Part shown: piece after piece, positions 191-1,300 of the stretch
How positions within the stretch are numbered: position 1 is the stretch's first letter
Layout of the letters: each line of letters begins with the position of its first letter
Source of the DNA: a virus
Taxonomy: Duplodnaviria > Heunggongvirae > Uroviricota > Caudoviricetes
DNA length: 17,722 nucleotides
Virus record (IMG/VR): IMGVR_UViG_2695420708_000013
Coordinates: 1 to 17,722 of that record
Reading direction: 5' to 3' (one strand)
The notes under the pieces: generated by a model
Seen by the model: the letters and a program-made list of their open reading frames with translations, nothing else
What the model was told of the DNA's origin: nothing
Database searches by the model: none
Translations under genes and position numbers: made by a program

Positions 191-1300
191 TCACTCTGTT
201 TCTGCTATCCATTCCGGGATTTTTGCCTCAAGCTCAAGCTGCGTGGTAAAGCCGCTGTTATCAATGGTGTGCTCGGCTTTTGCAATAATCCAGTCCTGAT
301 TATCAATCTCGCTTTTAAATCCTGTTACCGTGCCATGCATTTCGGGGTAGAGTTCTGCACGTCCATGCGCCAGTGTGATGGAGAATGATGCGGCTCCGCG
401 TTGTAGCTGCTGCCACTTTGCCGCCGCTGCACGTCTTGCTGCCTGCTCGTTCTGATAAGTTTTGCGTAACACAAACACGTTGCCTTCCGCACCTTCCATA
501 TAGTCGCCTTCCCGGCTGCTGCTTTTCTCCTTTTTTGGTTTTGACGGTTTGCGGCGTTTCACGCTGACTTTTTTCTTTTTCCCGTAATTAAGATCAAGCC
601 AGTAAGCGCGTACCCCCGTATACGCTTCGCGGTCAGCAATGCGGAACTGATGGCGATCGCCGCTGCTGCGTGTGATGGCGAACGAGGGCAACGGCTGGCC
701 CTGTGCGTTCACGCCACCACCGGGCATGATGAATAACAGATTACCGCTTTTTACCGTGGTGATTGCGCCCAGCATTTCCGCCATGCGCGTAAGGAAGGAC
801 ATGTCGCTTTCTTCGGTCTGGTCGGCGTGGTCGATTTCGATATCCATCAGCATTTCGCTGATTTGCGGTTTCAGACCATACCGATGAGCGATGGCGGATA
901 CCACACGCTCAACGGTCACATCATGCTAGGACACCTCACGTTTAACGTTAAATTCAGCCCGAAAATCTGCGCTTCTGGCTGAAACAGTCAGCCTGTCCGG
1001 CGGTCCTTCGTGAGCGATTTCATCAACAATGTAAGTGCCTTTTTCTGTCAGCGGTTCTCCCTTCCAGCCAATGAGAACCGTCAGGCGCGCGCCCCGTGGC
1101 GGTAGCTGCAACTGACCATCCGCATCATCCAGCGTGATGGTGAGCTGGTCCGCCTCAAATCCCCGGTTGTCGGTCAGTGACAGGCTCATCAGGCGCTCTG
1201 CCACGCCTGACAGCGTTTTACCCTCCGCGAGAATATCAAAATCCGGCATTTTCACGGGGTCTGTGCCCTGACTGAGCAATTGCATGGTGGTGTCGGTCAT
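191..1300 (-). pseudogene. D: P2 gpD-like tail protein, interrupted by an in-frame TAG at 926-928
   Basis: ORFs 926..1432 and 191..919 are in the same frame, separated only by TAG (reading ...EFNVKREVS * HDVTVERVV...). Likely true start is ATG 1298-1300 (MTDTTMQLLS) preceded by GGGAGGGAG; the ORF-track start at 1432 is an upstream extension. Confidence 0.6.

Follow-up and report, generated by a model that had tools for sequence, protein, structure and literature searches.

An in-frame amber codon at a former Dcm site in the hub gene D of a decaying P88-like prophage of Shigella sonnei

Background

Two adjacent open reading frames in a Shigella sonnei prophage, both assigned to the tail gene D of P2-type phages, are separated by a single amber codon. 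This arrangement raises the question of whether one gene was broken by a point mutation, through which process the codon was altered and whether the prophage could still assemble a tail. Gene D is essential for P2 tails; the hub protein normally trimerises beneath the tail tube, and three copies of a gp27-like hub suffice per tail. The DNA analysed here, referred to as the window, is a stretch of 17,722 nt that constitutes the entire contig CXAP01000091.1 of the S. sonnei assembly GCA_001260795.1. A survey of the literature on P2-like prophages of S. sonnei found nothing on the D locus. The pseudogene described below is previously undescribed but ordinary, and offers nothing new in kind.

Results and discussion

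A single gene interrupted by one codon

Translation of positions 188-1300 of the minus strand yields one frame of 369 codons, gene D (191-1300), with a sole internal stop. The stop is the TAG of codon 125 (window 926-928), which appears as CTA on the plus strand, and the surrounding frame reads ...EFNVKREVS before it and HDVTVERVV... after it. Scanning gene D for stops or frameshifts besides codon 125 returned none. The features of the locus are collected in Table 1. The initial annotation had placed the two D reading frames in the same frame, parted solely by the TAG at 926-928; the listing of open reading frames and the translation agree with this description. D is to be regarded as one gene broken by one codon rather than as two chance reading frames, because the joined protein matches a single Pfam family. 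The coding sequences deposited as CSN65055.1 and CSN65046.1/WP_052998700.1 are consequently two halves of one pseudogene.

Table 1. Coordinates of the main features in the 17,722-nt window
Feature	Position	Strand	Remarks
IS2 terminal inverted-repeat end	1..41	.	~150 bp downstream of D; left contig end
Gene D, baseplate hub, P2 gpD/Phage_GPD family	191..1300	-	369 codons + stop; pseudogene, one internal amber
C-terminal D open reading frame, 242 aa, CSN65046.1/WP_052998700.1	191..919	-	Starts at GTG; exact-sequence look-up
In-frame TAG, codon 125, ancestral TGG/Trp	926..928	-	Mutated base 927: plus strand T, ancestral C
Former Dcm site	926..930	.	Plus strand CTAGG now, CCAGG ancestrally; C to T at second C
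Open reading frame upstream of the gene D TAG	926..1432	-	Listing of open reading frames; same frame as 191..919
N-terminal D fragment, 124 aa, CSN65055.1	929..1300	-	Exact-sequence look-up
Intact FI (sheath), FII (tube), E/E+E', T (tape measure), U	1458..7033	+	tblastn against P88, 96-99% full length; Pfam
IS600-like end	17684..17722	.	Right contig end; adjoins or lies within the start of the lysB-like open reading frame 17226-17678(-)

The identity of the product as a gpD homolog, proposed in the initial annotation, is borne out by three lines of evidence. With the Trp restored, the protein matches PF05954 (Phage_GPD) with 62.9 bits, for a family cut-off of 30.1. The C-terminal fragment alone still obtains 55.7 bits over profile positions 87-304, and the N-terminal fragment of 124 aa alone has no match in Pfam. 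Residues 18-356 of D also align with the hub of the R2 pyocin (PDB 6u5h_C, E=1e-40), a chain that we take to be PA0628, although the match record does not carry that statement. In R-pyocins, PA0628 and PA0616 form the central spike complex, in the manner of gp27-gp5 of T4 (PMC10811340). Finally, D sits among P2-type tail genes encoding the sheath, tube, gpE, tape measure and gpU, with ogr located downstream in relatives of the window.

The prophage is P88-like and belongs to Xuanwuvirus, a P2-related member of the Peduoviridae, as judged by sequence comparison. Its gene D displays 97.5% DNA identity with that of phage P88, and the protein 98.4% amino acid identity with P88 gp51. When 24 P88 proteins were compared to the window using tblastn, 12 tail genes (R, S, V, W, J, I, U, T, E, FII, FI and D) were recovered over their entire length, in the P88 order and with 94-99% amino acid identity. 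Beyond the tail genes of Table 1, an intact DNA invertase of the Hin/Cin type is encoded at 7069-7674 on the minus strand. It is followed by a methyltransferase-like reading frame (7806-8474, plus strand), which has weak Pfam matches to methyltransferase families and none in NCBIfam, and by the remnant of a second invertase (8568-8855, minus strand), 73% identical to residues 1-99 of the P88 invertase. P88 lacks both of the latter at this place.

The ancestral codon

Three close relatives agree on the nature of the codon that preceded the TAG. Between the D gene of E. coli O111:H- 11128 and that of the window there are 5 differences in 1113 positions, and codon 125 reads TGG in the former, as it does in phage P88. 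A contig from SRR21142969 matches the window at all but one of 998 nt, and the exception again makes codon 125 a TGG. The suspicion of a single-base change from TGG (Trp), voiced in the initial annotation, is therefore confirmed by these sequences, and the alignment of gpD orthologs points the same way: of the 121 homologs, whose identity goes down to about 70%, 120 have Trp in the column of codon 125. This Trp is invariant in a separate alignment of 43 sequences (A1), and aligns with a Trp of the R2 pyocin hub chain 6u5h_C. The best-matching protein cluster of D is full length and comprises 6052 member sequences.

The reverse situation, in which orthologs would naturally end at this point, was also looked for. 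A natural split of D at codon 125 was sought among more than 2400 homolog matches and none was found. No other protein ending at Ser124 is listed in the 90% protein clusters, where the remaining short members are partial sequences at contig ends. The notion of orthologs terminating naturally at Ser124 was accordingly rejected.

A separate matter is the labelling of intact D genes in public records. RefSeq/PGAP annotates the intact 369-codon D as a 266-aa 'contractile injection system protein, VgrG/Pvc8 family' from an internal start, and the same records add an antisense pseudo 'hypothetical protein' over D, as in E. coli O111 11128 (locus L001, 3001-4110). The succession of 'VgrG/Pvc8 family' and 'hypothetical protein' labels was considered as a sign of split E. 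coli D genes and rejected, the full reading frame being open. This internal-start labelling is an annotation artefact that resembles a split gene.

Confirmation of the base in read-set assemblies

Two Logan read-set assemblies contain the locus. That of SRR1814246 (7322 nt) and that of ERR024605 (4174 nt) both match the window at 100% identity from end to end and display the same TAG; both also end at the window's own IS2 junction. The GenBank assembly may have been built from the ERR024605 reads, which leaves only SRR1814246 as clearly independent. A base-call error at position 927 is very unlikely, because the same TAG and the same IS2 junction are found in the two assemblies. The TAG is clonally inherited, at least among the sequenced isolates with the common IS2 junction, and the allele might be used as a marker of the S. 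sonnei clade in which the adjacent IS2 insertion is also present. An origin as a laboratory amber mutant was considered and rejected, the TAG having been found in S. sonnei isolates, known as draft assemblies, and in an E. coli from human stool.

A former Dcm site at codons 124 and 125

The ancestral codons of Ser124 and Trp125 (TCC-TGG) form the sequence CCTGG, a Dcm (CCWGG) site, at gene positions 371-375. The D genes of O111 11128, P88, SRR21142969 and E. coli 90-3040 all carry CCTGG at these positions, and an enumeration of Dcm sites established that this is the sole CCWGG within the 1110-nt gene. On the coding strand the change is a G-to-A transition, whereas on the plus strand C927, the second C of CCAGG, became T. 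Had the Dcm cytosine of the coding strand gone from C to T instead, Ser124 would have been encoded by TCT in place of TCC, a silent change. The nonsense changes possible in gene D were also enumerated: there are 123, of which 29 are transitions, W125amber being one.

The target of Dcm methylation is the second C of CCWGG in either strand, and amber hotspots in lacI were reportedly described by Coulondre, Miller, Farabaugh and Gilbert in 1978. The classical lacI amber hotspots are attributed to deamination of 5-methylcytosine, as summarised in PMC12606429; the background on very-short-patch repair is given in PMC3527292, and Shigella flexneri is known to express Dcm (PMC12215381). The window itself contains no dcm gene. 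In the proposed sequence of events, Dcm would methylate C927 in the ancestral CCAGG, which is paired with the G that was changed. The 5-methylcytosine at 927 would then deaminate spontaneously to thymine and escape very-short-patch repair, converting TGG to TAG. Deamination is, we infer, the most likely chemical cause of the TAG, because the altered base lies opposite the methylated C of the sole Dcm site of D. Codon 125 may have been hit rather than another because methylation by Dcm makes it a hotspot. Any G-to-A replication error yields an identical product, and the sequence is no proof of deamination.

Recurrence of the amber codon in E. coli

When complete genomes of E. coli were searched with a 60-mer having the TAG at its centre, 1043 matched, and the TAG is present in a single one of these, strain 2013C-3492. 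This second case came from a search aimed at the TAG allele alone of the 123 possible nonsense changes. Exact TAG-containing 23- to 44-mers gave no match in the GTDB species representatives (two scans), in IMG/VR or in the JGI metagenomes; at least 120 contigs of IMG/VR have the TGG version. The TAG allele is rare.

In 2013C-3492, the D gene has the same TAG together with 28 other differences from the window gene. Its prophage adjoins tRNA-Leu/Cys/Gly-pgsA-uvrC, whereas the relatives of the window sit by ihfA/pheT. The same degraded prophage is present in the sister strain 90-3040, whose sequence departs from that of 2013C-3492 at one base in 7113 nt, namely the G/A of TGG/TAG. The D haplotypes of 2013C-3492 and the window are identical across gene positions 345-572. 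Two separate mutations of the same methylated C provide the most economical reading, because each TAG lies one base away from a TGG sister of its own haplotype; W125amber would thus have arisen at least twice, the two origins being apparently independent. The other nonsense change observed in the 81 D genes of IMG/VR is non-Dcm. If this reading is right, the locus would show a textbook mechanism at work in nature, the same amber having been produced twice in wild Escherichia/Shigella lineages by deamination at a Dcm site.

Other features of the two E. coli prophages, that of 2013C-3492 in locus L008 (1-3232 and 7066-8222), may be recorded here. The tape-measure gene of 2013C-3492 is frameshifted and split by an IS3-family element; that of 90-3040 is also frameshifted and truncated. 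An IS600 adjoins ogr in 2013C-3492, and 90-3040 (locus L132) has the same IS600.

Consequences for the hub protein

Translation would stop after residue 124, leaving the first beta domain alone. Such a truncation removes about two thirds of the hub, which makes a tail-assembly defect a reasonable expectation: without the full hub, the prophage would be unable to build tails, and tail assembly is likely to be lost. The AlphaFold model of D (mb7dc8e648e13) is weak, with a mean pLDDT of 56, and its placement of Trp125 is unreliable. It shows a first beta domain at residues ~18-110 (pLDDT ~80) and a low-confidence linker at residues 113-126.

The C-terminal piece of 242 aa would be made by reinitiation only. 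Its GTG start lies two codons past the TAG, PGAP calls this reading frame, and a GAGG motif can be read about 14 nt 5' of the GTG, a spacing that exceeds the usual one. Common amber suppressors insert Gln, Ser, Tyr, Leu or Lys, and the window contains no tRNA genes. Amber suppression would probably not rescue the phage, because the suppressors insert residues other than Trp and the prophage has other lesions.

Decay of the prophage

The TAG is one of several lesions in a decaying, IS-riddled prophage. At the left end of the window, the 48-mer of the IS2 end occurs repeatedly in E. coli genomes, the median being 3 copies and the maximum 41, and in locus L010 the same sequence abuts an annotated IS2 transposase. 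The SRR21142969 contig continues past this point, free of IS, into a PIN-domain gene, ogr, hok and ihfA; the IS2 end thereby parts D from the PIN-domain gene, ogr and hok of its relatives. At the right end, the sequence 17684-17722 is also multi-copy, one match lying under an annotated transposase of the IS600 family.

The tail-fibre gene H (11067-13708, minus strand) changes frame at ~12832-12838, where a P2-H-like N-terminus ending in ...GKQPKDATL runs, out of frame, into a lambdoid stf-like segment rich in Ala and Ser. Beyond this segment the KAPLNSP...KDATL module occurs a second time. Either the frame change is genuine and H a recombinant pseudogene, or short reads were assembled into a chimera across a 220-nt repeat that lies nearby.

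Gene D is itself disrupted in several ways among related prophages. In SRR21142969, codon 125 is TGG, yet the gene is cut at codon 89/90 (window ~1037) by an IS30-family end. The 25-nt end of this element (1-25) is identical to the IS30-family end found within D in the IMG/VR loci L069 (268-292) and L128. In L128 the element (5308-6466) encodes a transposase of 383 aa (NF033563, E=3e-82). Altogether, 10 of the 81 full-length D genes in IMG/VR loci are disrupted. Six of these ten have a stop just after a run of six A (window 569-574, T6 on the plus strand, codons ~241-243), and the loss of one A from the run was confirmed in both of the D genes inspected; this run could be a second mutational hotspot or reflect homopolymer sequencing error. 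One further gene of the ten has TCA changed to TAA at codon 41. Selection on D appears relaxed, because nonsense changes, IS30 and the 10/81 disruptions strike the gene independently. In practical terms, the prophage is to be scored as defective when the prophage content or inducibility of S. sonnei is assessed; the significance beyond annotation is little.

Alternative explanations

The simplest objection is that the TAG is an error of sequencing or assembly and that D is actually intact. The source is indeed a fragmented Illumina draft, represented by a 17.7-kb contig with IS copies at both ends, and ERR024605 is possibly identical with the read set of the deposited assembly. The 100% identity of the SRR1814246 and ERR024605 assemblies with the window, the TAG included, speaks against an error, as does the site of codon 125, which is neither a homopolymer nor a repeat. 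A finished E. coli chromosome moreover carries the same substitution, and an artefact is hence considered exceedingly improbable. More weight is to be given to the possibility that the hotspot is illusory, either because a single TAG of one origin was spread by a short recombination patch or because a replication error unrelated to Dcm struck the codon. Within the identical positions 345-572, gene conversion over 228 nt or less would go unnoticed, and the search covered W125amber alone. Against a single origin, each TAG is one base off its TGG sister (1/998 nt for SRR21142969, 1/7113 nt for 90-3040), and the two haplotypes, which have 28 further differences, occupy different chromosomal loci. 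As to a chance error, the base struck is the methylated C of the one Dcm site of D, among 123 nonsense-producing changes. This pair of explanations is judged rather unlikely, and two independent deaminations at the Dcm site remain the preferred account.

It might also be argued that D still works, through readthrough of the amber by a suppressor tRNA or leaky termination, or as a split hub of two pieces of 124 and 242 aa. The GTG two codons past the TAG, the GAGG motif upstream of it and the PGAP call lend themselves to the two-piece version, in which the break would fall in the low-confidence linker 113-126 modelled after the first beta domain, and a hub needed in three copies per tail makes small demands. 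The structural model on which this placement relies is nevertheless weak (mean pLDDT 56), and none of the >2400 homolog matches is naturally split here. Readthrough fares no better: Trp125 is nearly invariant, the common suppressors put in other residues and the window is without a tRNA gene. The destruction of D by IS30 in a sister lineage and the 10/81 disrupted genes furthermore point to relaxed selection. A functional D is thus given hardly any credence. Only marginally more is granted to a reading in which the Dcm site would be a favoured 'off switch' of the tail under positive selection, or the two-piece hub a working one. If that were true, hosts inactivating the tail module, by W125amber or by IS30 in D, would avoid lethal production of tails or phage. 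The account that we hold with good confidence from these sequence comparisons is that W125amber in the hub gene of a P88-like prophage probably arose by deamination at a Dcm site and is likely to have abolished tail assembly in an element already subject to decay.

Comparison with known systems

As in the lacI Dcm hotspots, an amber codon was produced in D by a GC-to-AT transition affecting the second C of CCAGG, a change that has apparently recurred independently. In lacI the coding strand changes from CAG to TAG, whereas in D the methylated C is on the non-coding strand, hence TGG to TAG. W125amber differs also in being a natural allele of wild isolates. With respect to P2, where D ends the FI-FII-E-T-U-D operon, the D gene of the window is divergent from FI and carries the amber at residue 125. 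The divergent orientation is shared with P88, the FI-U tail genes being transcribed away from D in both. The window copy differs from P88 by its degradation, namely W125amber, the frame change in H and the IS2 and IS600 ends, as well as by the extra methyltransferase-like reading frame and the invertase remnant. Lastly, the decay of prophages in Shigella and E. coli by IS elements and point mutations offers a close parallel: several independent lesions are found in one prophage, and D was hit differently in sister lineages, by a nonsense change in one and by IS30 in the other. No difference from this general pattern was apparent, and the prophage of the window is typical in this respect.
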